Shown here piece by piece: positions 1,466 to 19,165 of a DNA stretch of 64,000 nucleotides. Location of the stretch: NCBI GenBank assembly GCA_030739585.1, contig JASLYX010000001.1, positions 372,452-436,451 on the forward strand, written 5' to 3'. The notes below the pieces were generated by a model. It worked only from the letters and a program-made list of their open reading frames with translations, did no database searches and was not told where the DNA came from. Within the stretch, counting starts at the first letter, position 1, and each line of letters opens with the position of its first letter. The stretch is from Candidatus Bathyarchaeota archaeon. Lineage in GTDB: Archaea; Thermoproteota; Bathyarchaeia; TCS64. A program made the translations under genes and the position numbers.

Positions 1466-2467
1466 TTAACAATTAATAAGGCCTAGGAGTTTTTCAGGAT
1501 TCGTTTTAACCATCTTAGTGAGATCGTCATTTGTGATTCCAAAATCCATCAAACATGCAATAAACTCTCTTAATCCCTCTAATGGCGTTGGTAGGGTATA
1601 AACACCAAAATCGGTTGAAAGTATACAATGCTGTGCTCCTAATTCTTCTATCTGCTCAGCAACATGTTTAACTCCCCCAGATACCTCTCCGCTCATCCCT
1701 TCATCAATAGATGCATACTCTCTTTCAACGTAATAATGTGTTTTAGGTATGGTTGTTGTATGTGTGTAGGCGGCAAGAGTATATTCGATGAATGCATTTT
1801 TTTCCGTTATATATTGAAGTTCATCCATTGTGGCCTCTTTAACGACAGCGCTGGATACTATGACCTTTTCAATTCCATATTCTTCAGCGAGGTCTACCAG
1901 TCTAATCGATTCATCAACCGAGGTATGACCGGTTATCATGTAAACGTGAGGCTTCGCAGCAATCAACCTTAATATTTCATCAAGGTTCTCCCCAGGTTTT
2001 TTTTCTAATGGGATCTCAATGCACATGTCAAGTTCTTTTTTAAATTCTGGGTATAATTTACTTAGAGGTACATATTCACCATCGACAACTCTGCCTTCTC
2101 TCGCGGCCTGGAAGTATGTACTATGTGCTCCAAAACTTACGTATTTAGCACCATCACCATAGTAAAGTGCCGTTTTCACTGCTCTTGGATTCATTCCACC
2201 ATAGACAGTATTTAATATCAAGCCACCATACGTCTGAAAATCAGGTATTTGTCTATTTACTAACCAAGCAGTTCCGTTGCTCATTTCAAATACATCCATA
2301 TAGACTATTGCTTGCATACCCGCGTCCCTTGCTTCAATGGCTGCTTGGAATGGGTCCACTCTCCGAGGACTGCTGAAAATATGAGGACCTGCATGAAGGT
2401 GTATATCTATTGCTCCTTTGAGCAGTTCCTTTGATTTTTCAAATGATCTTCCTTCAGGTAATATCAT
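1466..2467 (-). CDS. Metal-dependent hydrolase, amidohydrolase/TIM-barrel superfamily
   Basis: 333 aa with N-terminal IDIHLHAGPH (HxH metal-ligand motif typical of amidohydrolase-fold enzymes); AT-rich island gene. Confidence 0.5.
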   Translation of the reverse strand: MILPEGRSFEKSKELLKGAIDIHLHAGPHIFSSPRRVDPFQAAIEARDAGMQAIVYMDVFEMSNGTAWLVNRQIPDFQTYGGLILNTVYGGMNPRAVKTALYYGDGAKYVSFGAHSTYFQAAREGRVVDGEYVPLSKLYPEFKKELDMCIEIPLEKKPGENLDEILRLIAAKPHVYMITGHTSVDESIRLVDLAEEYGIEKVIVSSAVVKEATMDELQYITEKNAFIEYTLAAYTHTTTIPKTHYYVEREYASIDEGMSGEVSGGVKHVAEQIEELGAQHCILSTDFGVYTLPTPLEGLREFIACLMDFGITNDDLTKMVKTNPEKLLGLINC

Positions 2468-2595
2468 GATTAATCAACCTATGTTCCACAAACATAAATC
2501 TTCATGTTATAGAAAATAGGTAGTTGAAAATATTTTATCGAAGCCTTAAAACTCTCAACTCTAAATATTTGATGATATATTAAAAACGGATAATG

Positions 2596-2603
2596 TTTTA
2601 TAT
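2596..2603 (+). promoter_or_regulatory. TATA-like box (TTTTATAT) about 25-30 bp upstream of the SBP start codon
   Basis: Archaeal promoter-like AT element at the appropriate distance from ATG 2628; the gene is probably leaderless. Confidence 0.3.
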
Positions 2604-2627
2604 CGAGTAAAACTTATTTGTCCTTTA

Positions 2628-4454
2628 ATGAAAATGAAGAAAATTCGTAAAATTGACATCTTATTACCTGTATTAGTAGCGCTATTAATGACATCTACAG
2701 TAGTAGTTTTTCCTGGATTAGCAAAAGAAGAAAACTATTTCTTTGAAATAACTATGATGTTGGATCCAGCTAATATTGATGCTGCTGAAATCATGAAAAG
2801 AGGCTGGGAGGAAATCGGGATCAAGGTAAATATTGTTACTCTTGAGTTCTCCACAATGTTGAACCGATACTTATACGGAGAGTCCTATCCCGGAGCTACA
2901 TATGATGAAGGCGGTCTTGATATTGCGCTAACTGGGTGGGGAACTATGATTCCCGATAGTTACGGAAATTACCATTCTCACTCAAGAATCGGTATAGGTA
3001 AATTTCCAAATTACAACATGATGATGTTTGCTCATGGAGAGGTTGATGATCTATTAGAAGAAGGCTTAAAAACACTAGATAGAGACAAAAGTATCGAAAT
3101 CTACAGACGAGTAGAAGAAATCGTAAATGATGAACTGCCAATAATATACATATTCAGAGATAATCGAATTGTAGGTCAAGCCAGTACATTGGAATTAGGA
3201 GATTATGTGCAGCTTGGAAGCACTTCAGCCAACCTAAGGTCCTGGGATTTCCATTATACTGACAAAAAAGGTGGGGAGATGGTCTTTATTGGAGACCAAA
3301 ACCCTCCCGGTCTCAGCGCTATGTATTCCATTACAACAGTAGGTGTGAACAATGCTTACCTCATCCAAGAACCATTGGTGGCCTTTGGCCTACCTGTGGG
3401 AACGTTTGAAGGTATACTGGCCGAAAGTTGGGACATTTCAGAGGACGGAAAAACCTACACGTTCAACTTGCGAGAGAACGTAAAATGGCAAGACGGAGAG
3501 GCTTTTGATGCTGATGACGTAATGTTTACTTGGGATCTATTCATGAATCCTGAAGCAGGTTTTAGTGGACATGGATTCTTTGCTAAGAATGTAAAGGAAG
3601 TAAGAAAGGTAGATGAGCATACCCTCGAAATGGTGCTTAACGACATATATACGTCTGCCATATATCGTCTGGCTACACGAGTAATGCTTCCAGAGCACAT
3701 CTTGGGGGATGTAAGTCCATCTGAACTTAAAACACACGGGTTCAACAAGGAACCTATTGGTACAGGACCATGGAAAGTTGCTAAATGGGTTGATGATGAA
3801 TACATCCAATACGAGCGATTTGATGGTTACTGGCGAGGGACTCCTAAACTAGACAGTATAAAATTCAGAGTAATGCCTGACAAAGCAACAGGAATAGCAG
3901 CTTTACAAGCTGGAGAAATCCAGTGTATATTCCAACAAATTTACCGTACTGCCTTGATTCAAAACTTTGAGACACTTGAAAAAAATCCGGATGTAAAATT
4001 GATAGAGTATCCACCTACTGGAACTAATTATGCAATCATTAACTTAGAACACCCAAATCTGAACAATAAATTCGTAAGACAAGCAATGGCCCAAGCCATT
4101 GATTACGAAGGAATAGTTGAGGGTGTCTACAATGGTCATGCATCAAGAACATCGCAGTGGTATTCCAAGTTAATGGAGGGTTATTTCAACCCCGACTTGG
4201 AATGGAAATATGATATTCCAGCAGCTAAAGAAAAAATGGAAATGGCAGGCTACAAGTACACTTGGCTAGAGGCACCAACGGAAGTTACAAAAACAGTTAC
4301 AAAAGAAGTCAAAGTACCTGGAGAAACAGTTACAGTACCTGGAGAAACAGTCATAGTGAAACAAACTGACACTATACAACTAATTGCTAGTATAGTGGCC
4401 GGAGCCGTCATAGGCGGACTTGTCGTAAAATTTGCCTTTAAAAAAGAAACCTAA
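2628..4454 (+). CDS. ABC-transporter substrate-binding protein, family 5 (oligopeptide/dipeptide/nickel type), membrane-anchored
   Basis: N-terminal signal/TM segment. Family-5 SBP signature block GTGPWKVAKWVDDEYIQYERFDGYWRGTPKLDSIKFRVMPD. Thr-rich linker with tandem VPGETVTVPGETV repeat, then a C-terminal hydrophobic anchor (IASIVAGAVIGGLVVKFAF), typical of archaeal SBPs. Confidence 0.75.
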   Translation: MKMKKIRKIDILLPVLVALLMTSTVVVFPGLAKEENYFFEITMMLDPANIDAAEIMKRGWEEIGIKVNIVTLEFSTMLNRYLYGESYPGATYDEGGLDIALTGWGTMIPDSYGNYHSHSRIGIGKFPNYNMMMFAHGEVDDLLEEGLKTLDRDKSIEIYRRVEEIVNDELPIIYIFRDNRIVGQASTLELGDYVQLGSTSANLRSWDFHYTDKKGGEMVFIGDQNPPGLSAMYSITTVGVNNAYLIQEPLVAFGLPVGTFEGILAESWDISEDGKTYTFNLRENVKWQDGEAFDADDVMFTWDLFMNPEAGFSGHGFFAKNVKEVRKVDEHTLEMVLNDIYTSAIYRLATRVMLPEHILGDVSPSELKTHGFNKEPIGTGPWKVAKWVDDEYIQYERFDGYWRGTPKLDSIKFRVMPDKATGIAALQAGEIQCIFQQIYRTALIQNFETLEKNPDVKLIEYPPTGTNYAIINLEHPNLNNKFVRQAMAQAIDYEGIVEGVYNGHASRTSQWYSKLMEGYFNPDLEWKYDIPAAKEKMEMAGYKYTWLEAPTEVTKTVTKEVKVPGETVTVPGETVIVKQTDTIQLIASIVAGAVIGGLVVKFAFKKET

Positions 4455-4586
4455 TAAATCCTCCTCGTTTTCTTTTTTTTATCCCTTGATTGTTAATGTT
4501 GCATCTATAACTGGTTTTTCGAGTTTCTACGTGTTATCATCTAAGATTTGTAAAAATAAACTGTATCATGAGGTCAAAAAACTAGA

Positions 4587-4919
4587 TTGAATATTTCGTT
4601 AAAAGTGCCTGGTGGGTCGGGAGCTATCTTCAGAGCTTTTTATCTTGGGAGAACTGTATCCATTTGCAGGAGCATAAAATTGATGCAAACCGATTCAGCT
4701 AGGAAATATTTAGCAATTATAATTCTTCTTTTTACATACCTTATTTTACCAATTTTATCAATGTTGTTGATAATATTCTTTTTTTATGTAATGCATCAGT
4801 GGATCAGCATGTTTCCATCTATTAACCTTAATGATGTCGTAATCAATCTCTTTCTTACCATACTTCTATTTTCATTTTTATATCTTTTCAGAAAATTAAT
4901 TCTTTGGCTTAGAGATTAA
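4587..4919 (+). CDS. Hypothetical small membrane protein
   Basis: 110-aa ORF, highly hydrophobic, AT-rich; no recognisable motif. Confidence 0.3.
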   Translation: MNISLKVPGGSGAIFRAFYLGRTVSICRSIKLMQTDSARKYLAIIILLFTYLILPILSMLLIIFFFYVMHQWISMFPSINLNDVVINLFLTILLFSFLYLFRKLILWLRD

Positions 4920-4952
4920 ATACTTAAGGACAAATGGTACATATATCTAACC

Positions 4953-6554
4953 ATGTATGACCTCATAATAAAAGACTCGAAAATTCTCGATGGAACCGGT
5001 ATCCCAAGTTTTAGAGCAGACATTGGGATAAAAGGAGAAAAAATTGTTGAGGTATCCAAGGCTCAATTATCTGAAGAGTCTGAAACAATCATTGATGGCA
5101 ACGGATTATTTGCCGCTCCAGGTTTTGTAGATATGCATACTCATGCAGATATCTCTATATTTACGAATCCACTTGGGAAAAGCCTCATAATGCAAGGAGT
5201 GACACTTGTGTTGACTGGAAATTGTGGTTCAAGCCCTGCACCGCTTGACGATGATATTAAAAAAGGATGGCTTTTGAGAGGTGGTGGATATAAACCTGAT
5301 TGGGATGATTTTCCTGGATATCTGGATGCAATTGAACGTGCAAAATTTAGTTCAAATATAGCCACTCAAATTGGACACAACTCCATAAGAGCTTATGTTA
5401 TGGGAGAATACGCTGCTCATGCATCAAATAAAACTGAGTTAGATGAAATGTCAGAAATACTGGAAGTTGCAATGGATGCAGGGGCCATAGGTTTTTCATC
5501 TGGTCTAATGTATAGGCCTGGTATTTGGTCTGAAACAGAGGAATTAATTGAGTTATGCAAGGTCGTGGAGAAAAGTGGTGGCGTTTATACATCCCACATG
5601 CGTGGTGAAGCTAATGAAGTTTTACAATCAGTTTCTGAGCTAGTGAAAATCACTGAAGAATCAGGAGTTTCCGCACATATAGGTCATCACAGGGCCGAAT
5701 GCCGAGTTAATTGGGGCTTGATTAAACATACTCTGGGAATGATGATGCAGGCTAATCTCAAAGGTTGCAATATTACGTGTGATTTTTTTCCTTATGAAGC
5801 ATGTGGTGTGGGTGGTGGAATACCATTACCAAGATGGGCAAGTCCGCTATATATGCCTAAGAAAGATGCAGAAAAAATGATACATGACTCTCAAACCCGT
5901 GAAAAAATAAAGGATGAAATAAGAAAAGGAACTGAACTTGGACCAGACAAACGGTCTTATGAACCAATAGATAGTACGGATGATGTCGTAATCACAATTT
6001 ACCCAGATGAACCCGAACTTCAGGGTAAAACAGTCACAGAGTTATCAAGAATTAAAGGTTATACCGATCCTTTGGATTTTTTTTTATATACTGTTACTAG
6101 TGACAAACCCTTTGGTGTGGTGGCTTTCAATGTATGGGAGAAAGATCTTGACAAATTAGTAAAATCTCCGTTAGCTATGATTGGTACTGATTCAGGCTTT
6201 GTCGATAATATTGGTGTTCCCAATAGACATCCCAGAGCTTATGGTTCTTATCCAAAGATTCTTGGAGAATATGTCCGAGAAAAAAAACTTATTTCTTGGG
6301 AGGAAGCAGTGATGAAATTTAGTACAAGGCCACACTCAAAGCTTGGGATCAAGGATAGAGGAGTTATTAGGCCCGGGTTCTTTGCGGATTTGGTGTTTTT
6401 TAACCCAGATACCGTTGGTACAAAAGTGGATTATTCAGGAGTAGCAAGGTATCCTATAGGCATTGAACACGTGGTTATTAATGGACAATTAGTTGTGGAA
6501 AACTCAATACATACTGGAAAGAAATCCGGAAAACTCATAAGAAAACTGGGTTAA
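4953..6554 (+). CDS. Amidohydrolase-3 family, N-acyl-D-amino-acid deacylase (D-aminoacylase)-like
   Basis: 533 aa. N-terminal beta-sandwich then GFVDMHTHADISIF (D-aminoacylase-type HxH). Overall length and architecture match the D-aminoacylase family. Confidence 0.65.
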   Translation: MYDLIIKDSKILDGTGIPSFRADIGIKGEKIVEVSKAQLSEESETIIDGNGLFAAPGFVDMHTHADISIFTNPLGKSLIMQGVTLVLTGNCGSSPAPLDDDIKKGWLLRGGGYKPDWDDFPGYLDAIERAKFSSNIATQIGHNSIRAYVMGEYAAHASNKTELDEMSEILEVAMDAGAIGFSSGLMYRPGIWSETEELIELCKVVEKSGGVYTSHMRGEANEVLQSVSELVKITEESGVSAHIGHHRAECRVNWGLIKHTLGMMMQANLKGCNITCDFFPYEACGVGGGIPLPRWASPLYMPKKDAEKMIHDSQTREKIKDEIRKGTELGPDKRSYEPIDSTDDVVITIYPDEPELQGKTVTELSRIKGYTDPLDFFLYTVTSDKPFGVVAFNVWEKDLDKLVKSPLAMIGTDSGFVDNIGVPNRHPRAYGSYPKILGEYVREKKLISWEEAVMKFSTRPHSKLGIKDRGVIRPGFFADLVFFNPDTVGTKVDYSGVARYPIGIEHVVINGQLVVENSIHTGKKSGKLIRKLG

Positions 6555-6601
6555 ACTACAAAAGCATTTATTTTTCTTTAATCGTTTTAATCTATCCTAC
6601 G

Positions 6602-7033
6602 TTGAAACAATACAAGTTAGATTTAATCGGTGCATTACTTGTGTTGATAGGTTTAAGTGGATTACCCTGGTATATTATTAAAATCAGAGTGTCTCGGGAT
6701 TTATGGTATAATTTTTCTTATTCTCCTTTTAAATTAATTATTGAAATGGGGGATGTTGTTGATGCTGATTTATTTTATAGATTTGATTCAACTATTGTTG
6801 GCATTATCCTATTATTAATGTTGTTATTAAGATTAATTAAAACAGACATCTTAAAAATGAAATATTTAGCTCCATTAATCATGGGATTAATACTAATATT
6901 TTTTACATCATTTCTTCCTATACATGTAACAACAGCATCAAGGCTAGTTATTGGGGATGGGGCTTATTTTATTCTCTTTGGATCTGCCCTACTAATCATA
7001 TCAAGTATTATAAATCAACTTTATTCTCAATGA
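6602..7033 (+). CDS. Hypothetical membrane protein
   Basis: 143-aa hydrophobic ORF (TTG start in the track); AT-rich. Confidence 0.35.
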   Translation: MKQYKLDLIGALLVLIGLSGLPWYIIKIRVSRDLWYNFSYSPFKLIIEMGDVVDADLFYRFDSTIVGIILLLMLLLRLIKTDILKMKYLAPLIMGLILIFFTSFLPIHVTTASRLVIGDGAYFILFGSALLIISSIINQLYSQ

Positions 7034-7264
7034 ATTTCATGATAAATAACTTATTAAATATTCCGCGCACACTCTAGTGCTCTTATTTAAGTCTTCTAAA
7101 TATTCTATCATCACTGTAATAGAAGTAGCCCATAATCTTCTTTTTAACTCAATGTTCCCCAAACGTTCTTTCTTACGTTCAAATAAAGTTACTGAAAAGA
7201 TTCTGGCGGTCAATTCAACGGTAACAAAACTTCAATTTAGATATTCTATTTAGAAAAACTAATC

Positions 7265-7528
7265 GTGAAATTGGACAAACCTCCACAACCTGATGGCAAG
7301 AAAAGGGGGACTTTCAAGGAGGCAGACATAAAGGGGACACGGGCGACTGCCAACTTTAGGAGGCGGATCCCCCCTTTGGTGTTGGATCTGGAGAAGCTAC
7401 TTTCCAAAGTAAGGACTGCTATGGTAGAGGAGTACGCCCATGTCTACAGTATGAGAAGGGTGTACTGTGAAAAATCCCCCTTCTGTTCTGCCATTAGAGG
7501 CTTATATCTGATTAGAGGACAAGTCTAG
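7265..7528 (+). CDS. Hypothetical protein; possibly the N-terminal part of a disrupted gene continuing in 7556-7933 (same frame)
   Basis: 87-aa ORF in the same reading frame as the downstream HExxH ORF, separated from it by two in-frame stops (TAG at 7526-7528, TAA at 7553-7555). Confidence 0.3.
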   Translation: MKLDKPPQPDGKKRGTFKEADIKGTRATANFRRRIPPLVLDLEKLLSKVRTAMVEEYAHVYSMRRVYCEKSPFCSAIRGLYLIRGQV

Positions 7529-7555
7529 TTTATACTGAATGGAGGACGTTTCTAA

Positions 7556-7933
7556 TTGATCCACTACTTCCCTGCTCCTGATGTAAAGAGGAGCATTGAG
7601 GAGATGGTGGGCCTCCTTAGGTTCGATCACATTGACTTGGGCAATATATATTGCGTCAGAAGCAGAGGCTCTAAGGCGAAAAGTACTATTGCTAGGATCC
7701 ACGGCAGGAGCAAGGTTTGGCAGGCTGTTGGTCTTGAGCCCTCATACGTTATCGAGATAATAGCGGAGCGATTTGATAGACTATCTCCAGAGGATCAGGC
7801 TAGGATCTTGATCCACGAGCTTCTCCATATCCCCCACGGGTTTAAGGGAGGCTTTCGACATCACAAAGACTATGTCAACGACGAGACGGTCGATACCTGG
7901 TATAAGAGGTATTGCGAGAAGAAAGACGCTTAA
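7556..7933 (+). CDS. Putative zinc metallopeptidase-fold protein (HExxH; SprT-like/predicted-metallopeptidase type)
   Basis: ILIHELLHIPHGFKGGFRHH contains a HELLH zincin motif plus downstream His. The track start is a TTG; the first ATG is at MVGLL. Confidence 0.45.
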   Translation: MIHYFPAPDVKRSIEEMVGLLRFDHIDLGNIYCVRSRGSKAKSTIARIHGRSKVWQAVGLEPSYVIEIIAERFDRLSPEDQARILIHELLHIPHGFKGGFRHHKDYVNDETVDTWYKRYCEKKDA

Positions 7934-9571: not shown

Positions 9572-10270
9572 TCAAAGGATGATCCGGGCATCCACGACCA
9601 TAGCGCCCTCTTCATAGACGAGAACAGGATTCATATCCAGTTCAGATATCTCGGGACAATCAACAAGCATCTCTGATGTTTTCAGCAGTATTTCGACGAT
9701 GACCTTGGTGTCTGAGGGGGGCTTCCCCCGAACCCCTTCGAGGATCTTGTAAGCCTTGATCTTTTTCACCATCTCCTCAGCGTCTGACCGGACTATCGGA
9801 ACGAGCCTGAAGCTGACGTCTTTCAAGATCTCGACGAAAATCCCTCCGAGCCCAAACATCAGGGTTGTGCCGAAGGTAGGGTCCTTGGTGGATCCGACGA
9901 TGACCTCGGTCCCCCAAGGGGCCATCTTTTGGATCAGGATACCGGTAATCTCAGCCTCTGGAACGTAAGCTTTGATATTCTTCAGGATAGTCTTGTACCC
10001 CTGTCTGACCCCCATTTCGTCCTTAATGTCGATAAGGACACCACCGACATCAGATTTGTGGATGACCTGGGGAGATACTATCTTGAGGACCACGGGAAAA
10101 CCGAGTTTCTTGGCGGCATCAACGACGTCTTCCTCGGTCTCCCCGACAGTAATCTTGGTTACCGGGAGACCATAAAGGACACAAAGGTTCTTAGCCTCGT
10201 GCTCGAAGAGGAAATCCCTGCCCTCGGCCTCGGCGGTTTTGAAGATCTCGTTGACTGCTTTATCTCTCAT
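9572..10270 (-). CDS. acdB: Acetate--CoA ligase (ADP-forming) beta subunit (ATP-grasp)
   Basis: 232 aa; near-colinear match to Pyrococcus ACD beta: KIVSPQVIHKSDVGGV, FGLGGIFVEILKDVSFR, ELDMNPV...VDARIIL. Confidence 0.85.
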   Translation of the reverse strand: MRDKAVNEIFKTAEAEGRDFLFEHEAKNLCVLYGLPVTKITVGETEEDVVDAAKKLGFPVVLKIVSPQVIHKSDVGGVLIDIKDEMGVRQGYKTILKNIKAYVPEAEITGILIQKMAPWGTEVIVGSTKDPTFGTTLMFGLGGIFVEILKDVSFRLVPIVRSDAEEMVKKIKAYKILEGVRGKPPSDTKVIVEILLKTSEMLVDCPEISELDMNPVLVYEEGAMVVDARIIL

Positions 10271-10393
10271 CCTTGGACACTCCGAATTAGATCCTTACTG
10301 CATTAACCCGTGATTTTTAAAAATATCGTACGATTCCCCCGCGCGTTGAATCTCGGAATATAATAAACATGTATATCTCTCGCCAGTTATGCA

Positions 10394-11047
10394 TCAGAAT
10401 CGCTGGCTATACCTCTGCTCCGTCCAGGGGTCTGCTTCATTGTGGTAGCCGTTCCTCTCCCAGAAACCAGGGCGATCACGATCCTTAAACTCAAGCCCTC
10501 TGAGCCATTTTCCTCCCTTCCAGAGGTAAGTGGTCTTCGCCTCACTCCTGTCTGGAAAAGAGCCGATAACCCCCCTAAGAGGATATCCGTGATCTGGAGT
10601 GAGGGGTTCCCCCGCATAATGGGTAGCAAGGAGGAAGTTGTCAGCCATGACTAGATCGATGGGAAGATTTTCAGTGAAGTTATGCTCACAATGCTGGATG
10701 ACAAATTTGGCTTCGGGTTTGGGCTTAATTATGCCCTCCTCGACGAGGTCCCTAATGAAGACACCCTCCCACTCCGTATCTAGTTTTGACCACCAGGTTA
10801 CACAATGTATGTCCAGGATGATCTTCCTCTGTGGGAGATCATTGAACTCCTCCCACGTTAAGATGACTTCCTCCTCAACAAGACCGAAAACCCTAAAGTC
10901 CCAATCTGATAGGTTGACTTTAGGGATTGATCCGTAGTGGAGGATGGGGAACTTCTCAGTGAGGGACTGCCCGGGGGGGAGACGTCTGAGTTCTTCCCCA
11001 TCGCCCTTCTTGAAACGAGATAAGAAGCCACTCAAAACAAGCGCCAA
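10394..11047 (-). CDS. Molybdopterin-dependent oxidoreductase, sulfite-oxidase/YedY(MsrP)-like catalytic subunit
   Basis: 217 aa; oxidoreductase molybdopterin-binding fold hallmarks (LPPGQ, KFPILHYG, conserved Cys in HCVTWWS). Confidence 0.6.
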   Translation of the reverse strand: MALVLSGFLSRFKKGDGEELRRLPPGQSLTEKFPILHYGSIPKVNLSDWDFRVFGLVEEEVILTWEEFNDLPQRKIILDIHCVTWWSKLDTEWEGVFIRDLVEEGIIKPKPEAKFVIQHCEHNFTENLPIDLVMADNFLLATHYAGEPLTPDHGYPLRGVIGSFPDRSEAKTTYLWKGGKWLRGLEFKDRDRPGFWERNGYHNEADPWTEQRYSQRF

Positions 11048-11190
11048 GATGAAGAAACAAACAGCAGTTTATCAAGGTATGTAAAAATCTGTTTATTCCC
11101 GGCGGATAAATAGGTGGCATTCATATTTCTCCGAAGTTGTCTGCTTCGACGATTTCTTTAAGGATCAAAGGCTATCTATCTTTAATCATC

Positions 11191-12336
11191 ATGGATTTTG
11201 AAGGAAGGCTGAGTCGAGCAAGAGAGGAGATGCGGAAAATGGGCGTTGATTTGATGTACCTCCGCCGGGGAGCTAAGCTATGGTACTTGGCTGGTATTCG
11301 GAGGCGAGGGCCTGAGATGACTGATCATAACACCTATGGGGACTATATTCAGGGTGCTTACGTAGGGGCTGAGGAGGGCTTCGTCCTAGTGGGACCCCGG
11401 ATGGGTAGCGCAGCATGGGTATACGAGGCCAAGGGAAAACCCTGGATCAATGAATTGAGGATCATTGATGAGTCTGAGACCCCGGAGAAGGTCCTAGAGG
11501 AGGTCCTCAAGGGATTCGATGTTAAGGGCGATGTCATGGTTGACGAGCGAGCCTGGGCTCAGGGAGGGCTTCTAATTCAGAAAAATCTCCCGCGATCAGG
11601 CTTGAGACTTGCTTCGGAGATCATCGATCCAATGAAGATGATTAAGGACAAAAACGAGATCGCCCTTATGAAAAAGGTGGGCGAGATTACTGATAAGGTA
11701 TATGGCGAGGTAGTAAATCACCTCAAGGTGGGTCTGAAGGAGGAGGAGGTGGCCCATGAGGTGGACTACCAGTTCACCAAACACAACTCAGATCAAACCT
11801 CCTTCGTTACCGGGGTGAGGTTCAGCAGCCCCAAGAGACCTAGGAGGCTTCACGCGTCTCGGTCGACATCTAGGAGCCTGCATGAGGGAGATACTATCAC
11901 GTTTGACTTTGGTGGAGTCTACCAAGGTTACTGCTCCGACTTCGGGAGGACGGTCTACGTGGGGGATCCCCCGGCAAAGGTAAAGGAGATCCATAATGCC
12001 GTGATGGATGCACAGGCTGCAGCCATACAGGTGATGGTGAGTGATACGATAACAGCGCAGGGGCTGGATAGGATAGCCCGGGGCCTCATCACAGACAGGG
12101 GATACGGCGAGTGCTTCGGCCACAGACTAGGACATGGGATAGGGGTCACCGTGCACGAGCCACCTTTTCTCTACATCCCCGACGACACGATGCTCCAGAC
12201 CGGGATGACATTCACTGTGGAGCCCAGCATCCGGCTTCCAAACAGCTGGTCGGTTAGGGTAGAGGACGTCGTGATGGTCACTGAAGAGGGAGGACTCCCT
12301 TTCACTAACTATCATAAAGAGCTAATCACCATATGA
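11191..12336 (+). CDS. M24 family Xaa-Pro aminopeptidase/prolidase
   Basis: Creatinase-type N-domain plus pita-bread domain: DFGGVYQGYCSDFGRT, HRLGHGIGVTVHEPP, TVEP. Start taken at the first ATG (MDFEGRLSRAREEMRKMG), which matches the family N-terminus. Confidence 0.75.
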   Translation: MDFEGRLSRAREEMRKMGVDLMYLRRGAKLWYLAGIRRRGPEMTDHNTYGDYIQGAYVGAEEGFVLVGPRMGSAAWVYEAKGKPWINELRIIDESETPEKVLEEVLKGFDVKGDVMVDERAWAQGGLLIQKNLPRSGLRLASEIIDPMKMIKDKNEIALMKKVGEITDKVYGEVVNHLKVGLKEEEVAHEVDYQFTKHNSDQTSFVTGVRFSSPKRPRRLHASRSTSRSLHEGDTITFDFGGVYQGYCSDFGRTVYVGDPPAKVKEIHNAVMDAQAAAIQVMVSDTITAQGLDRIARGLITDRGYGECFGHRLGHGIGVTVHEPPFLYIPDDTMLQTGMTFTVEPSIRLPNSWSVRVEDVVMVTEEGGLPFTNYHKELITI

Positions 12337-12668
12337 CCGACACGCAATCACGTGTACCGTTGTCAGGTTTTTTTAAGGGTCTTCTCCAGGATGTCGAGAC
12401 CCTTCTCGAGGAGATCGTCATTTATGCTTAGTGGTGAATGCAAATGGATGCAGTTGTCATAGAGGCCTGCCTTGAACGTCAGCAGTCCCGAGGAAAGTGT
12501 AGCCTTCATCACCCTGGATGAAGCCTCCGGGTTTGGCTTTTTTTTGAGCTGCGGTCATCACCATCTCAATGACAAGCATGGGTCCCTTACCACTGTCCTC
12601 TTCAATGGTCTCGAATGTATCGAACTAGATCTTGATTATGTGGGACCCACTCCTTCAGGGAACTCTGC

Positions 12669-12730
12669 CTTCAGGAAACGAAGGTAGGAGGGTTTATCCC
12701 AAAGTGCGGGTGGTTGGATTCCCACCCAGA
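12669..12730. repeat. Direct-repeat copy A: degenerate tRNA-Leu 3' fragment plus ~35 bp of flank
   Basis: 12669-12710 matches 17102-17143 with 2 mismatches in ~42 bp. It continues as the degraded tRNA 3' end TGGTTGGATTCCCACCCAGA (versus GGGTGGGATTCGAACCCACGG in the intact tRNA). Confidence 0.65.
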
Positions 12731-13230
12731 TTTACTAGTAAAATTGAAACATAATCGATGATTTTATCCTCACATCCCCTCAACTCTATGATATAGCCGA
12801 CCCATTGCTTGGTATCGAAGTGATGAAAAATGATTGACATAACACATCGATTTCAAACAGACTTTAATGGGAAAGACCCCGACAAATATTAGCAGATTAG
12901 GAACCCGATCTAGTAGAAGACTTACTAGACTACGCCCAAGAATCTATGAGAACCCGAACAAATAAAGATTCAGCGAAGAAATCGAGAGTTCTTTGTCAAT
13001 TGATAAGCGACGATAATTGTATAGGCGGGAAAGTAGAGCGCAAGATCTGAATGCTATGTCAATGTTCGTGCGCTTGATCGATTATGCGCGTGCAGGCCCT
13101 CATCGACAAGAATTTCTTGCGTAAAACACGGGATTTCTGGTAGATGAACCATGGGTGTTGTCACGATACTAATCATAGCCTACCCTAGAGAGTCTAGAAA
13201 CAAGAAAATGATTTTAATTCTAACATATTC

Positions 13231-14490
13231 TCAATCTAATGTTATTATCCCATCTATCATACAGAACTTTATTTTCCTTAAATCGCTGATGTCTTTTTCT
13301 GGGTTGCCCTCCACGGATATGATATCTGCTTTCACCCCCACTTTAATTGTCCCAAAGATGTCTCCCATCCTGTATGCCTCTGCCGCGGTACCCGTTGCCG
13401 AGGATATGACTTCTAGAGGTGACATACCTGCGTCCACCATCATCTCCATAGCCCTCAGCAGACGCGTCGAGTTCCCGAGTCCCGTAGCGTCTGACCCCGC
13501 GACAACCTTAACCCCCATTTTTCTCATCCTAGAGAGGTTTTCGAATTTCCTTTGGAACTTATAATTCAGTTCCTCCCAAGCTCTTTCTTCGTCATCAGCC
13601 AGCACCTGCCCCTCTTTCGTTATAGCCCCGAGTGAATCATATCTATCAGACCCGGTCTGCAGAGTGGGGCAATAGTAAAGACCCTTCTCGGTCATGGTTT
13701 TCACGGCGTCCTCGTCGAATCCTCTGGACCCATCCGGGGTCAAGAAGCCACAGTGACAGAGGATGTCCACGCCAGCCCGGGCCGCGTTCCCCACGGAGTC
13801 ATACGCCTCACAATGGGCTGTTATCACGCGTCCTAACCTGTGAGACGCTTCCACCGCCGAACGCATCTCTCCCTCGCTGAAGGTGACCTGGCTCGCCGTT
13901 GGGCCTCCGAGGGATCCGATGTTAACTGAGCCTCCACCTGATGCCATAATCTTGACAAAGTCCACATCCTCCTTGACGAACTGCCCTACCCTCGCGACCA
14001 CCTGGTCAACTCCATTTGCCTCGTTGTCGTTGCAGAAGTGGAAATGTCCGCCAGTACTGGTGAGAGGTCTACCAGCGACGAGAAGCCTTGGGCCCTCCAC
14101 TATTCCTAGTTTGATTCCCTGCCTCAGGCTCTGGGCCACTAGGTTTCTGGCCCCTGCATCCATCATGGTGGTTATTCCTGCTCGTAAGGCCGCTCTGACG
14201 TTTGATACTCCAGCCATCAAGTGGATGGAGTCAGACTCTCTGCTGATCTTGCTGTATCCCCCATAAGTCCCTAATGTGAGGTGTATGTGTGTGTCCACCA
14301 GACCTGGGAGCACTGTCTGTTCCCCTAGGTTCACCTCCCTGACCCCGGTACCTTGCGGTATTTCATCTTGACCGTCCTCGTCTATGAGGTGTATTTGGTT
14401 GTCTTTGACAACAATCACAGGATCATTAACTGGTTTATTTCCAGTTCCGTCAATCATGCGCTTGGCGCGAATAACCGTGTATTCACTCAT
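13231..14490 (-). CDS. Amidohydrolase family protein (imidazolonepropionase/Xaa-Pro dipeptidase-like, COG1228 type)
   Basis: 419 aa: VDTHIHL metal-binding motif, HCE..., GSDA; typical amidohydrolase-1 architecture. Confidence 0.7.
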   Translation of the reverse strand: MSEYTVIRAKRMIDGTGNKPVNDPVIVVKDNQIHLIDEDGQDEIPQGTGVREVNLGEQTVLPGLVDTHIHLTLGTYGGYSKISRESDSIHLMAGVSNVRAALRAGITTMMDAGARNLVAQSLRQGIKLGIVEGPRLLVAGRPLTSTGGHFHFCNDNEANGVDQVVARVGQFVKEDVDFVKIMASGGGSVNIGSLGGPTASQVTFSEGEMRSAVEASHRLGRVITAHCEAYDSVGNAARAGVDILCHCGFLTPDGSRGFDEDAVKTMTEKGLYYCPTLQTGSDRYDSLGAITKEGQVLADDEERAWEELNYKFQRKFENLSRMRKMGVKVVAGSDATGLGNSTRLLRAMEMMVDAGMSPLEVISSATGTAAEAYRMGDIFGTIKVGVKADIISVEGNPEKDISDLRKIKFCMIDGIITLD

Positions 14491-14576
14491 AGTAAGTGAA
14501 TACTATGGTTGGTATATTGTTTTAACTCGGTGGGTCTGAGAAACAATTTTAACAATTTGCGTCAGATATTTAGAAA

Positions 14577-15308
14577 ATGCATATCAATATCGCCGATGTC
14601 GAAGGATTGGAGATTACTCAGGGAGTTGTGGAGAGGACTTTACTCCGACCTGAGCAAACAGAGACTAGTGACCTGACCGTAAAACACCACGTCCTTACCG
14701 GGGGGGAGATAATGTTCGTGGAGGATGGCGTAGAATATCAGCATTATATCATCTCCGGGTGTGCCCTTATGAAGGGCCGCCTACTGCACGGCGATTCGGG
14801 TGTCTTCGTCCCTGGCAGCAGCCGGTTCGGTGAGCCCCATAAACACGGCTTTGCCCATACGGGGGAAGGAAAGCTGCGGATACTTACGGTGATATATAAG
14901 ACGCCTCGTCCAAACTTCAGGTGGGCCAAGACTAGGATCAAGAACCTGAGCCAAGTCGAGGGCCGCCTCGGGGGCATGTTTGCCCAACAAATATTCACGG
15001 AGGAGGAGCATGCGCTTATGGGGGCTCTTAGAATGCATTCTCTTGATGTTCAGACTCATGCGCCTGGCGTCGTTCTGCCCGTTCACCGAAACCCTGAGGA
15101 GTTTGCGTATATTCTAAGGGGGACGGGCGAGGTAATGTCCGGAGACAATAGGGTAAGGGTGAGACCCGGTTCTTTGGTGTACACCGAAGAGGCCGTTCCG
15201 CATGCAGTAAAAAATACTAGCGAAGACCTTCCTCTTCAGTATGTTGCATTCGAGTTCACGAGACAGGACGAGAGCTGGACCGAGATGGGGTACAATGAAA
15301 AAACGTGA
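14577..15308 (+). CDS. Bicupin domain protein (paralog 1)
   Basis: 243 aa with two cupin-like His-containing motifs (HHVLTGGEIMFVEDG; HRNPEEFAYILRGTGEV...PHAV). Shares SSRFGEPHKH, NFRWAK and EEEHALMGAL motifs with the adjacent paralog. Confidence 0.55.
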   Translation: MHINIADVEGLEITQGVVERTLLRPEQTETSDLTVKHHVLTGGEIMFVEDGVEYQHYIISGCALMKGRLLHGDSGVFVPGSSRFGEPHKHGFAHTGEGKLRILTVIYKTPRPNFRWAKTRIKNLSQVEGRLGGMFAQQIFTEEEHALMGALRMHSLDVQTHAPGVVLPVHRNPEEFAYILRGTGEVMSGDNRVRVRPGSLVYTEEAVPHAVKNTSEDLPLQYVAFEFTRQDESWTEMGYNEKT

Positions 15309-15379
15309 GCGCATAATATCGTTTTTAGCGAGCGATGTCCGCGTATTTATTGGTGGATAAAAGGATTCTGTGATGAATA

Positions 15380-16105
15380 ATGCACGTTAATATTGACAGC
15401 GTAAAAGAGAAAGAAATATCACCCGGGGTAATTGGGAGGGTTCTCCTGGCGGAAGGCCAGTCATCTCCGGGAGGCTTGACGGTATTTCACCACACCCTTA
15501 CGGATGGTGAAGTTGTTTTTGATCAGCAGGGAGCCGAGTTCCAGCACTATATCGTCCAAGGATGTGCCAGGATAGGAGGAAAGTTCGTCCACTCCGAGAC
15601 CGCGATATTCGTGCCAGGTAGCTCAAGGTTCGGTGATCCCCATAAACATAGGATAGCCCACGACGGGGAGGGGGAGCTCCGAATAGTCACCGCCATCTAC
15701 AAAACGGATCGACCGAATTTCAGGTGGGCCAAGTCTCGCAGCAGAAACCTCTACCAGGCGTTGCCGAGCGTCTCAACCATCATAAATCAGCAGCTCATAA
15801 CCGAAGAGGAGCACGCCCTCATGGGGGCGCTCAAAATGCATGCACTTGACATCCAAACCCATGCGCCCCTCACGGGTAACCCCGAGCATAAGAACCCCGA
15901 AGAGGTCATGTACGTTTTAAGAGGAACGGGAGAGGCGGTATGTGGCGAAGAAAAGTATCATGTGAAGCCTGGAGCGCTCATCTACTCAAAGGAAGGAGAG
16001 GTCCATGGTATCTATAACCGTGACGACAAGCTGCCACTGCAGTACTTTGTCCTCGAGTTCATTGATCACGACAAGATGTGGACGGAGAGAGGCTACAGGG
16101 TCTAA
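15380..16105 (+). CDS. Bicupin domain protein (paralog 2, tandem duplicate)
   Basis: 241 aa, colinear with 14577-15308 (MHVNIDSV.., SSRFGDPHKH, NFRWAK, EEEHALMGALKMH). Confidence 0.55.
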   Translation: MHVNIDSVKEKEISPGVIGRVLLAEGQSSPGGLTVFHHTLTDGEVVFDQQGAEFQHYIVQGCARIGGKFVHSETAIFVPGSSRFGDPHKHRIAHDGEGELRIVTAIYKTDRPNFRWAKSRSRNLYQALPSVSTIINQQLITEEEHALMGALKMHALDIQTHAPLTGNPEHKNPEEVMYVLRGTGEAVCGEEKYHVKPGALIYSKEGEVHGIYNRDDKLPLQYFVLEFIDHDKMWTERGYRV

Positions 16106-16462
16106 ACTCATTATCTCTGTTTTTTGAGCCACAGGCACAGACGAGACTCTTTTCAGAGTTCTTTGTCAACTCTGACTCGCCCACCACATAATTGAATTAT
16201 GTTTCATGGCCGAGTAAAGATTTCTTCAATCAAATACATTTATCTGGTTAGATAGAATAAAAGCAAACCCGCTAGTTTTCTAGGCTTTAGAGTCCCTAGC
16301 TGGATTACGCCCCTATATGGCACTTGATTCCGTCCACGCCTTCCTCGAGGAGAGAACGGTCATTAGGCTCCACGAGTTCGACGAGCTCCTGAAGAGCGTC
16401 GAAAGATAGCCTCCGGAGGTTCCCGGACCCCATTTAAATAAGCCCCGCCGTTAGGATGAACC

Positions 16463-17041
16463 ATGTCATTCACACTCCATATAGGAGAAAAAGCACCGGA
16501 CTTCGAGCTCCCCGCCACCGACGGCAACACCTACAGCCTCGGCGACCTCGACGATGAGACCCTCGTGGTCTTCTTCACATGTAACCACTGCCCCTACGTC
16601 ATCGGATCAGACGAGGCGACCCGGGGGACAGTGGAGAAGTTCTCGCTCAAGGGCGTCAGGTTCGTGGGGATTAACTCCAACAGCATCAAGACCGTGCCCG
16701 GGGACGGATTCCCCCAGATGGTGGAACGCATGAAGGAGCACGGGTTCCCCTGGCTCTACCTCAGGGACAAATCCCAGGAGGTCGCCAAGGAATACGGCGC
16801 CCTGAGGACGCCACACTTTTACGTCTTCGACAGGGAGCGCAAGCTGGTCTACACGGGACGCGCCATCGACAACCCCCGAGAGTCCTCGAAATCGACGGTG
16901 TTCGACCTGGACAGGGCCCTCGAGGAGCACACCTCGGGGAAGCCGGTGAGCGTCCCCCTCACTAACCCCATCGGGTGCAACGTAAAGTGGGAAGGGCAGG
17001 ACGCCCACTGGATGCCCCCCGAGGCTTGCGACCTCGTCTAG
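16463..17041 (+). CDS. Thioredoxin-fold protein (AhpC/TSA/redoxin family thiol-disulfide oxidoreductase)
   Basis: 192 aa with CNHCP (CxxC) redox motif in a thioredoxin-like context ([10 protein letters not shown]). Confidence 0.6.
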
Positions 17042-17101
17042 CGACGGACTAACTGCTGAAATACTGCTTCAAAGGGGCCACGGCTTTTCACCATTGAGAG
17101 A

Positions 17102-17163
17102 CTTCCGGAAACGAAGGTAGGAGGGTTTATCCAAAAGTGCGGGGGGTGGGATTCGAACCCACG
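17102..17163. repeat. Direct-repeat copy B: 3' end of the intact tRNA-Leu plus adjacent ~35 bp
   Basis: Matches 12669-12730 (see copy A). Confidence 0.65.
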
Positions 17164-17224
17164 GAGGACTAGTCCATCAGGTCCTAAGCCTGACCCCTTT
17201 GGCCACTCGGGAACCCCCGCTGGT
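17137..17224 (-). tRNA. tRNA-Leu (anticodon UAG), class II with long variable arm; CCA not encoded
   Basis: Minus-strand read GCGGGGGTTCCCGAGTGGCCAAAGGGGTCAGGCTTAGGACCTGATGGACTAGTCCTCCGTGGGTTCGAATCCCACCCCCCGCA. 7-bp acceptor stem; anticodon stem TCAGG/CCTGA with loop CUUAGGA; long variable arm; T-arm GTGGG-TTCGAAT-CCCAC. Confidence 0.8.
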
Positions 17225-17297
17225 AATCATATCAATCTCCTGAACCGGATTAAAGCATTACCTGACACCAAGGCTCCATCGCACGCGAGCCATCTTG

Positions 17298-18104
17298 CTA
17301 AAGAAGATAACGGGGTTCTCCTTTAATGGATTCCACTAACTCTAAGGCCGTCTTAACCTTCTGCTCTATCCCATCTAGGATGAGCCGGACCGAGCCCTCG
17401 GCTCCTGCTATCCCCCCGGCAGCATATAGATGCGCATCCACCCCGGTCAGGAGCCGGAGCGCCTCTATTTCAGTGATAATCGTCCCCATGAGGGGCCAGA
17501 GGGTCATTCCCTTGGAATCTTCTTGGGCGGCGAGCCGGTGCAGATTATCTATATTCTCGTAGACCTGCTTTTCTAGCCCAATCGGGATGACGAGATGGAT
17601 CTTCTTCCCTATGACGCTTCCTATGACTGATCCCACAGTGCCCCCTGTGGGGCTCGCAATTAGTACCCCCGCTTTACTTCTCAGATAATCCAGAGCATTA
17701 GCTCCTTTGAGGTAGACGTCCCCCTGCCCCATTTCCCCCACGGCGCTGAACCTATCTAGCTCCGGGGCCACCTTCCCTTTTCTGAACACTACGTCGGGAA
17801 TCCTTTCATCATGGGCCTCAGGATGCCTTTCTGGTTGCTTCGGCGTCGTGATACCGCTCCGATACCTCCTCTTATCGAACCGTTTTCCCCAGAGCTCCTC
17901 AAGAACATAGGCGTTCGTGGTCCCTGTCGCTACCACCACCATCCCTTCCTTCATAGCCCGTCTCACCTCAGGCATTGCAGCAACGCCCATGGCGATTAGT
18001 CTCTTGGACTCTGACACAGTCAGAACAACCTGTCGCTTCAAATCAGATCTTGATACCATTCGTTTAATTAGAATATTAGTTGAACCCTCAGTAACCAGGC
18101 TCAT
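17298..18104 (-). CDS. Conserved hypothetical protein (Gly-rich alpha/beta protein, unknown function)
   Basis: 268-aa ORF with protein-like composition between two tRNA genes (motifs VVVATGTTNAYVLEEL, ASPTGGTVGSVIG). No family recognised from memory. Confidence 0.4.
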   Translation of the reverse strand: MSLVTEGSTNILIKRMVSRSDLKRQVVLTVSESKRLIAMGVAAMPEVRRAMKEGMVVVATGTTNAYVLEELWGKRFDKRRYRSGITTPKQPERHPEAHDERIPDVVFRKGKVAPELDRFSAVGEMGQGDVYLKGANALDYLRSKAGVLIASPTGGTVGSVIGSVIGKKIHLVIPIGLEKQVYENIDNLHRLAAQEDSKGMTLWPLMGTIITEIEALRLLTGVDAHLYAAGGIAGAEGSVRLILDGIEQKVKTALELVESIKGEPRYLL

Positions 18105-18380
18105 CTGATTATAACTATGTAAATCTCAAGACTTCCAGAGGATTTCCGAAAGCTGCTGCCTATATAGACGTTCTTCGAGTGTTTCGCCTTGGACATTATG
18201 ACCATTAATAAAAAAGAATATCAAAGACTTCTGCACGAATAAGGAGACCTCCAGTTTCCGAGGGATTGAACATGGTTACCTAAAAGATAAAAGAGATCAT
18301 AGATGATCTCTAGACTCCATTTTTCCTATGAATCTCGTTTAAAACTGACATCTTTTCCATTTTAAGGATTACTAGTAAAT

Positions 18381-18456
18381 TGGTGCGGCCGCCGGGATTT
18401 GAACCCGGGACGTTGGCTTGGAAGGCCAAAATCATGCCAGACTTGACCACGGCCGC
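18381..18456 (-). tRNA. tRNA-Gly (anticodon UCC), CCA encoded
   Basis: Minus-strand read GCGGCCGTGGTCAAGTCTGGCATGATTTTGGCCTTCCAAGCCAACGTCCCGGGTTCAAATCCCGGCGGCCGCACCA. Anticodon stem TTGGC/GCCAA with loop CUUCCAA; T-arm CCGGG-TTCAAAT-CCCGG. Confidence 0.8.
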
Positions 18457-18493
18457 TTACCATCAAACATGTGCATGACCGTTAAAATGTTTC

Positions 18494-18946
18494 TCAACCA
18501 GCTAGGGGGATTATAATCTCGATGGTGAAATCTTGAGCATCTAAATCCTCAGGGATATACATGATCTCAATGCTATGGAATTCGTTTGATGTTTCGTGTC
18601 CTTGATTCTCGATATATTTCCGCAGGATTTTGTAACATTCCTCTTGAGAAGTATCCGTGTCCTTATAGACAAGAAAAGCCCCGCGGATCGAGGGGAAGAC
18701 CTTAGTTTCAAGCCCCACCACCGAACCATTGATTGGGACCATCAACTCCCTCCGAGTGTTTGTGTCTTTTGTAGGATCGTATTGGACTACCATTGAATGG
18801 ATATATTTGTCTACGTCGATAGAGTGCTGTCCGATGAGGAGACTCAAGAGCTGAGAAATAGCTGGCCCTTCAGATTCCCATGGCCTTAGCACTTTATACG
18901 CTACTTTGATGGGGTCGGTAGTTCTGATTCCTAAGTGTAGAATCAT
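18494..18946 (-). CDS. Hypothetical protein
   Basis: 150-aa ORF, protein-like composition; no motif recognised. Confidence 0.35.
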   Translation of the reverse strand: MILHLGIRTTDPIKVAYKVLRPWESEGPAISQLLSLLIGQHSIDVDKYIHSMVVQYDPTKDTNTRRELMVPINGSVVGLETKVFPSIRGAFLVYKDTDTSQEECYKILRKYIENQGHETSNEFHSIEIMYIPEDLDAQDFTIEIIIPLAG

Positions 18947-19165
18947 TTAGCGTTCACCTTAATTCCCGGCTCTTAGAGTTCCCTGAACTTTACACTCAAT
19001 ACATGTGAGCCATTAAAAGGCATATCTCTATGAAAAATGCCATCTCTGCCGAGTCAAAAGACGATAGGACTCTATGTTCTTATCTACTTGCTTGAAAAAT
19101 ATTGTGTATCTAGTGAAAACAACCCGTAGAAAAATATTTCAAAGACTTTAAACACTGTTCAAGAA

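Follow-up and report, generated by a model that had tools for sequence, protein, structure and literature searches.

A direct repeat at tRNA-Leu(UAG) in a marine Bathyarchaeon: probable remains of a decayed tRNA-associated island at a site still in use

We analysed a 64,000-nucleotide (nt) window of contig JASLYX010000001.1 (positions 372,452 to 436,451; assembly GCA_030739585.1) from a Candidatus Bathyarchaeota archaeon, in which a direct repeat encloses a 4.4-kb block of genes beside an intact tRNA-Leu(UAG) gene. The locus is a decayed tRNA-associated island, probably what is left of a tandem array, and other elements still use the site. Under the reading that we prefer and consider somewhat probable on comparison with related loci, the two repeat copies are attachment-site (att) relics of tyrosine-integrase elements that inserted into the part of tRNA-Leu(UAG) from the T-loop to the 3' end. 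The repeat would then be the integrase-proximal arm of the attachment site on the element (attP), carried in by the elements, and not a duplicated host flank.

The repeat search yielded a single direct-repeat family, a 60-nt pair whose members, copy A on the side of an M24 peptidase gene and copy B at the tRNA, are identical at 54 of 60 positions (90%). Mismatches fall at repeat positions 5, 32, 43, 47 and 54-55, that is two in the first 42 nt and four in the last 18 nt, as had been described in an earlier note made from the sequence alone, and in an alignment of the copies (A1) the similarity ends abruptly on either side of the 60 nt. Both copies contain the 26-mer GGAAACGAAGGTAGGAGGGTTTATCC, which is found at no other site in the window and for which shuffled sequences give an expectation of 0.00. 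Copy B consists, as the earlier note had it, of the 3' end of tRNA-Leu(UAG) plus about 35 nt downstream; the tRNA was called by both ARAGORN and Rfam, and the Rfam search, run over 11000-19000, gave two tRNAs and nothing else. Copy A, a tRNA-like version that is non-functional, is oriented as copy B, from which it differs at two T-loop positions and in the flank. Its description as a degraded tRNA 3' end in the same orientation was confirmed, with one correction: the G to T change in the acceptor part is a population single-nucleotide polymorphism (SNP), 13 fetched loci having the tRNA-identical base and 7 the base of the window. In its ancestral form copy A departs from the tRNA at three positions and matches it at 21 of 24; the fourth difference in the window is this SNP.

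Contigs of the same population were recovered by exact-protein look-up of the products of the M24 gene, the redoxin gene and a gene for a conserved protein of 268 amino acids (aa) that flanks the tRNA, from TARA, FUCH22 and other marine samples. Pattern counts over the fetched loci revealed four states at tRNA-Leu among contigs with the identical 268-aa neighbour. In nine distinct contigs the tRNA is followed by the arm and the redoxin gene, the same as in the window. In two contigs (L002, L008) the tRNA runs into CTTTTTTACTAGTAAAAT, after which come a 171-aa gene and the gene of an XerD-like integrase of 323 aa, and in another (L007) the tRNA bears a 3' SNP and runs into a different flank, TCATTTCTGTTTCCGGAAGATCATATG. 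Four more (L092, L130, L131, L137) have the redoxin gene, the same 35 nt and a 23-nt tRNA fragment (GGGTTTGAATCCCACCCCCCGCA, one SNP), followed by foreign DNA with an RNase III gene; this is an element-host junction of the attR type. In this marine Bathyarchaeia population the tRNA-Leu gene is a live integration hotspot, a target of at least two integrase families and a place where older insertions have decayed. In the window it is the host target (attB), free of present-day elements. Alignment A2 puts the end of the tRNA-like part of copy A no more than 1 nt from that of the attR fragment in L092, and the same holds for L130 and L137; because the two ends coincide, copy A has the anatomy of a displaced att fragment. 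These comparisons support the view, first suggested by the earlier note, that site-specific recombination at the 3' part of tRNA-Leu left the repeat pair as its att-type footprint, and in other members of the population the same tRNA indeed holds different inserts. The scar is of the ordinary genomic-island kind.

The nature of the 35 nt beyond the tRNA is suggested by two homologous flanks. The locus L122 belongs to a sister species, its 268-aa protein being 79% identical, and shares its sample of origin with the related locus L116. Its orthologous tRNA-Leu is followed by a flank, CTTTGGCTGAACCCACCGCTATTTACGTTTCCTGAAG, homologous to the 35 nt of the window, and then by a tyrosine recombinase gene on the opposite strand (Pfam Phage_integrase, E=1e-15). 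The last codons of this recombinase (STPEDFMVFRKRK) and its stop lie within the flank; the gene (minus strand) reads toward the tRNA and is frameshifted further upstream. The flank of the population variant L007 reads TTSDDHMIFRKQK-stop (DDHMIFRKQK-stop), with the stop abutting the tRNA. The C-terminal tails in these flanks are thus FRKRK-stop in the sister species and FRKQK-stop in the variant, and in the window FRKRR-stop is in frame in both copies (copy A TPSGNSAFRKRR-stop, copy B DFRKRR-stop). Between the stop codon and the tRNA-like core there are 16-17 nt in the window copies and in L122, and the motif CTTC(A/C)GGAAAC shows no variation among the five sequences in alignment A2. At the variable flank positions copy A agrees with L122 (CTTTGG and CCTGAAG) and copy B with L007 (CCGGAAG). 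Such sorting of two variable arm positions by relative is unlike random decay, and would fit two family members, not one decayed duplicate. The 35 nt are therefore best described as probable element DNA, an integrase 3' tail plus a 16-nt spacer and not host flank, and the duplicated core which the earlier note considered unusually long for extending beyond the tRNA is better read in this way. On the copy A side the tail closes a 75-codon open frame that may be a relic of the integrase of the first element; it gives a co-terminal 24-aa alignment with the L122 integrase (E=6e-4), a score reached by 2 of 2000 shuffles.

Each copy would thus be made up of about 24 nt of tRNA 3' end, the 16-nt spacer and the last five codons and stop (FRKRR-stop) of an integrase gene. 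Since the arm appears to be element-borne in both copies, it points to two successive insertions, instead of the single insertion implied by the earlier note. A first element, E1, would have inserted into the tRNA next to the M24 side. A related element, E2, would then have inserted into the regenerated tRNA, displacing the 24-nt tRNA fragment together with the E1 integrase tail (copy A) by 4.4 kb and leaving its own arm at the tRNA as copy B. Deletions would have taken both integrases and most of the element DNA, after which the interval became fixed, and the regenerated tRNA would be the one still in use today by other elements. E1 would now be reduced to at most 350 bp beside M24, and E2 would be the 4.4-kb interval, its integrase cut to a few codons. 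If there were two insertions, any integrase relic belonging to copy A would sit outside the block, on the M24 side. Examined as a tandem array, the locus presents two fragment-plus-arm units, each having the FRKRR-stop tail only, with the longer copy A frame unrecognisable as an integrase.

Table 1. Features of the tRNA-Leu(UAG) locus, in window coordinates.
Feature	Position	Strand	Basis and remarks
M24 Xaa-Pro peptidase	11191..12336	plus	Pfam; conserved chromosomal flank, copy A side
75-codon open frame	12463..12687	plus	ends in TPSGNSAFRKRR-stop; possible relic of integrase of first element
Copy A, displaced att relic	12669..12728	minus	repeat search, alignments
Copy A arm	12669-12703		plus strand reads FRKRR-stop: codons 12670-12684, TAG 12685-12687, then 16-nt spacer
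Copy A tRNA-Leu 3'-end-like fragment	12704-12728		tRNA sense is minus strand
AT-rich gene-free stretch	12729..13230		GC 0.39-0.43; block side of copy A; opens with palindrome TTTACTAGTAAA (12731-12742)
Amidohydrolase	13231..14490	minus	Pfam; weakly similar to prolidases; first gene of three-gene module
Bicupin 1	14577..15308	plus	Pfam
Bicupin 2	15380..16105	plus	Pfam; tandem paralogue, 54% protein identity to bicupin 1
357-bp spacer	16106-16462		between bicupin 2 and redoxin
Redoxin / AhpC-TSA family protein	16463..17041	plus	Pfam
Copy B	17102..17161	minus	25 nt of functional tRNA-Leu 3' end (17137-17161) plus 35 nt downstream
Copy B arm	17102-17136		plus strand reads FRKRR-stop: codons 17103-17117, TAG 17118-17120, then 16-nt spacer
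tRNA-Leu(UAG), intact	17137..17220	minus	ARAGORN (tag); Rfam 55.5 bits
268-aa conserved protein	17298..18104	minus	function unassigned; chromosomal flank, tRNA side

The block between the copies is a mosaic of a compositionally foreign redoxin gene, a native-like three-gene module (amidohydrolase and two bicupins) and AT-rich non-coding DNA. The redoxin gene is a compositional outlier, with GC 0.61 and third-codon-position GC (GC3) 0.855 against about 0.58-0.62 for its neighbours and a codon-usage distance more than 3 standard deviations above the window mean; it is likely foreign cargo, and its composition suggests a recent foreign origin. The AT-rich stretch is presumed to be a far-end arm or remnant of an inserted element. 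The two bicupin genes have a 143-nt stretch at 71% nucleotide identity and are kept as a pair in all relatives examined. Nucleotide similarity to L116 is limited to window positions 13233-16107, and the module is about 85% identical to that of the sister lineage, much as flanking core genes are (79-87%). The module was either captured by an element from a close relative or set between the att scars by later rearrangement. In two relatives DDE transposase genes lie directly beside the module amidohydrolase (L119, 8890-9825; L139, 2935-4059), which hints that the neighbourhood of the module is prone to rearrangement. No integrase was found in the block by Pfam on all of its open reading frames (ORFs), and when the L008 integrase, the 171-aa protein next to it and the L092 RNase III were run by tblastn against the window, matches were at chance level only, in agreement with the earlier note. 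The note had proposed a search of the spacers for integrases; when 12337-13230 and 16106-16462 were compared by tblastx and blastn with all fetched loci, no integrase and nothing outside the window's own population was matched.

The 268-aa protein places the window in Bathyarchaeia, the nearest species representative being only 80% identical, and at each end of the region synteny with the nearest relatives is lost. Between the 268-aa gene and tRNA-Leu, relatives have an isopropylmalate/isocitrate-dehydrogenase-like gene (L011, 10880-11866; L014, 3737-4795; L122, 3022-4101; L124, 9065-10144), and in L101 a different ORF starts after the M24 gene (11200-11316). The window has neither arrangement, so that in this lineage the region is a synteny breakpoint. 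A search for a remnant of the OTC-like gene found after M24 in L101 gave no similarity.

Several observations weigh against successive insertions as the origin of the locus. The integrase-tail argument is based on just two independent homologous flanks, L122 and L007. When FRKRR is left out, the score of the copy A frame against the L122 integrase is not significant, being reached by 529 of 2000 shuffles, and upstream of its last 24 or so codons the frame has no detectable integrase similarity. Pfam found nothing in it, and when the 75-codon frame was searched with phmmer against 1.8 billion representative proteins, the only matches were to its own copies and to spurious repeat proteins; given this upstream part without an integrase match, only the FRKR tail of the frame is robust. 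The codon usage of the amidohydrolase and the two bicupins is genome-typical, and the module is chromosomal in four relatives (amidohydrolases 85%, 77%, 75% and 74% identical), where it stands in a cluster with two Amidohydro_2 genes and other catabolic genes and with no tRNA or integrase. Three of the four enclosed genes, which the earlier note took for cargo, are thus not obviously foreign, and the presence of a native-like, elsewhere chromosomal module inside an element remnant requires an extra capture or rearrangement step. The block is also present in 15 of 15 distinct contigs reaching it, with no presence/absence polymorphism, and exact-protein look-ups of the 268-aa gene, M24 and redoxin found no empty site. 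An intact relative of E2, with an integrase next to the same cargo, was likewise not found.

An empty site in relatives, which had been proposed as a check on integration, was sought further. The scan of the genome collection reached only 80% relatives without synteny at the locus, and the metagenome scan gave three loci, none of them informative beyond L101. The examined contigs held no second location of the block. With the block in all 15 contigs and no empty site found, there is no evidence that it still moves. The earlier note had left a choice between a decayed element and a cargo-only islet mobilised in trans: a decayed relic fits these results, and the islet moved in trans is unsupported, since the two copies differ, neither an empty site nor a second location was seen, and the viral collection held nothing related.

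A single insertion of one element would also account for the geometry, a direct repeat with the intact tRNA at one end and the displaced fragment at the other. In that case attP and attB would share about 60 nt, comprising 25 nt of tRNA and 35 nt of real host flank, and the block would be the element minus its integrase. Archaeal att sites of 29-69 bp are on record (PMC6563490), and the presence of the 35-nt flank downstream of the orthologous tRNA of the sister species (L122) would allow it to be old host sequence. The same L122 flank, however, holds the stop and last codons of an integrase ORF, and L007 has the same tail at a different spacing. With FRKRR-stop in frame in both window copies and the variable flank positions sorting with different relatives, we regard a single insertion as unlikely. 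A local duplication of 60 nt by replication slippage or repair, unrelated to integrases, has in its favour the bare existence of a two-copy repeat and nothing else. It is hardly credible given that the repeat begins at the same tRNA position as the present-day attR, lies at a demonstrated hotspot and carries an integrase tail.

It is also conceivable, if slightly less likely than a single insertion, that the block is not an element at all, and that recombination, integrase-mediated or homologous, between att relics or integrated elements at different loci rearranged the chromosome and left the native module and the foreign redoxin between two att scars. Synteny breaks exactly at both ends (a different ORF after M24 in L101, the isopropylmalate-dehydrogenase-like gene before the tRNA in L011, L014, L122 and L124), the three-gene module is native-like and chromosomal elsewhere, DDE transposase genes stand beside it in L119 and L139, and one element type uses two tRNA-Leu genes, which would provide dispersed att sites. 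Even so, at least one site-specific insertion at the core is needed to explain a displaced, directly oriented 24-nt fragment that has non-tRNA DNA at its 5' side.

Returning to successive insertions, a more specific version of the history is that a closely related Bathyarchaeon was the source of the native module, with its prolidase-like amidohydrolase and two bicupins, and that an element with an FRKR-tail integrase picked it up there and carried it, along with the foreign redoxin, to tRNA-Leu. We consider this quite improbable. If true, integrases would shuffle core metabolic genes within pelagic Bathyarchaeia, and the islet might remain excisable in trans by a related integrase of the L007 variant.

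The XerD-like integrase of the hotspot belongs to a large Bathyarchaeota integrase family. Its element was found, at 98% or higher nucleotide identity, at two tRNA-Leu genes with common 3' ends, CAA (L104, L106, L109) and TAG (L008, L105, L108); at tRNA-Leu(CAA) it adjoins an amino-acid kinase gene. In L105 and L108 the tRNAs at the proximal junction (attL) carry SNPs in the tRNA 3' end, which are element-derived, as expected where the element supplies the tRNA 3' part. The attR of the XerD-like elements in L112-L115 was not reached in more than 9.3 kb of sequence, and a 165-aa protein of L113 is unrelated to the L092 RNase III. Neither of the integrases matched anything in the viral collection, and nor did two DNA patterns based on att sites.

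A palindrome, (T/A)TTACTAGTAAA, recurs at several of these loci: in the window at 18368-18379, 1 nt after the CCA of tRNA-Gly(UCC), and at 12731-12742, 2 nt from the copy A tRNA fragment; in L008 at 1641-1650; in L104-L115; and in L122 at 311-320. Each attL of the XerD-like elements has it 5-6 nt past tRNA-Leu. Across 129 loci the 10-mer TTACTAGTAA was seen in these contexts only, and in the related species L011 and L014 tRNA-Gly is not followed by it; the palindrome may represent an arm site for an integrase, or else a scar left long ago at tRNA-Gly. We also considered an inverted insertion of an XerD-type element as the source of the T-arm differences of copy A, since all three change toward the opposite-strand T-arm and the palindrome adjoins. 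This was rejected as an over-reading of a naturally near-palindromic T-arm, and would also require two extra deletions.

In L012, from a Bathyarchaeon that is 72%-related, three decayed sequences resembling tRNA-Leu (10022-10047, 11859-11904 and 13668-13720), none of them called by ARAGORN, are interleaved with two small gene pairs (10122-10844 and 11086-11764) that by eye have an antitoxin/PIN toxin look; this may be another array of integrase-less islets at tRNA-Leu. Elsewhere in the window, positions 1466-7933 have low GC (0.28-0.40) and GC3 (0.20-0.34) and encode DUF6282, Amidohydro_3 and family-5 solute-binding proteins and a 143-aa orphan, after which comes an ORF for a 'putative phage metallopeptidase' (PF18894, 7556-7933). 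The stretch, upstream of the MCH gene, has the look of another acquired region.

She et al. (2001, 2004; cited in the review PMC8371274) reportedly described 'partitioning' integrases of the SSV1 type and gene capture in Sulfolobus. The likeness to the present locus presumably lies in an integrase gene set against the att core, and in elements trapped and decaying beside tRNA genes. The L122 integrase has a K-x-x-R box (KSLR), matching the KXXR given for SSV1-type integrases (PMC8371274). In contrast to that type, the att core here lies 0-17 nt downstream of the stop and not inside the ORF; the stop codon is outside the tRNA-like core, so that insertion leaves the integrase unsplit and the partitioning arrangement, with attP within the integrase ORF, is not the one found. 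The pNOB8-type signature, R...YXXR...Y (PMC8371274), was not seen in the L122 integrase, the sole related integrase compared, which has KSLR at that box; the window itself is without a catalytic domain.

Tandem integration at one site and loss of the integrase after integration are documented for archaeal elements (PMC8371274, and the Thaumarchaeota survey PMC6563490). As here, such integrase-less elements and tandem integrations decay to a 'cryptic' islet, and one tRNA target is used successively by related and unrelated elements; the present case differs in its host, a pelagic Bathyarchaeon, and in that three of the four enclosed genes look native chromosomal. For tandem arrays and tRNA islands in general, Islander (PMC4383910) offers the closest comparison. 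Islander islands have, like the window, an intact tRNA at one end and at the other a displaced fragment of its 3' end in direct orientation that starts in the T-stem/loop region, and the same tRNA is reused by several elements. They are, however, required to contain an integrase, and an Islander filter would reject the interval in the window because it has none. Only the last five integrase codons are kept in each copy, and no empty site is known.

No new mechanism is revealed by this locus, and the core that the earlier note found unusually long has a mundane explanation. What it documents is an active tRNA-Leu hotspot in an uncultured marine Bathyarchaeia population. It also carries a caution, namely that a direct repeat running past the end of a tRNA may be element DNA, the 3' end of an integrase gene left by successive insertions, and not a long host core, which is relevant to island-finding software and to the reading of gene gain in streamlined archaeal genomes.

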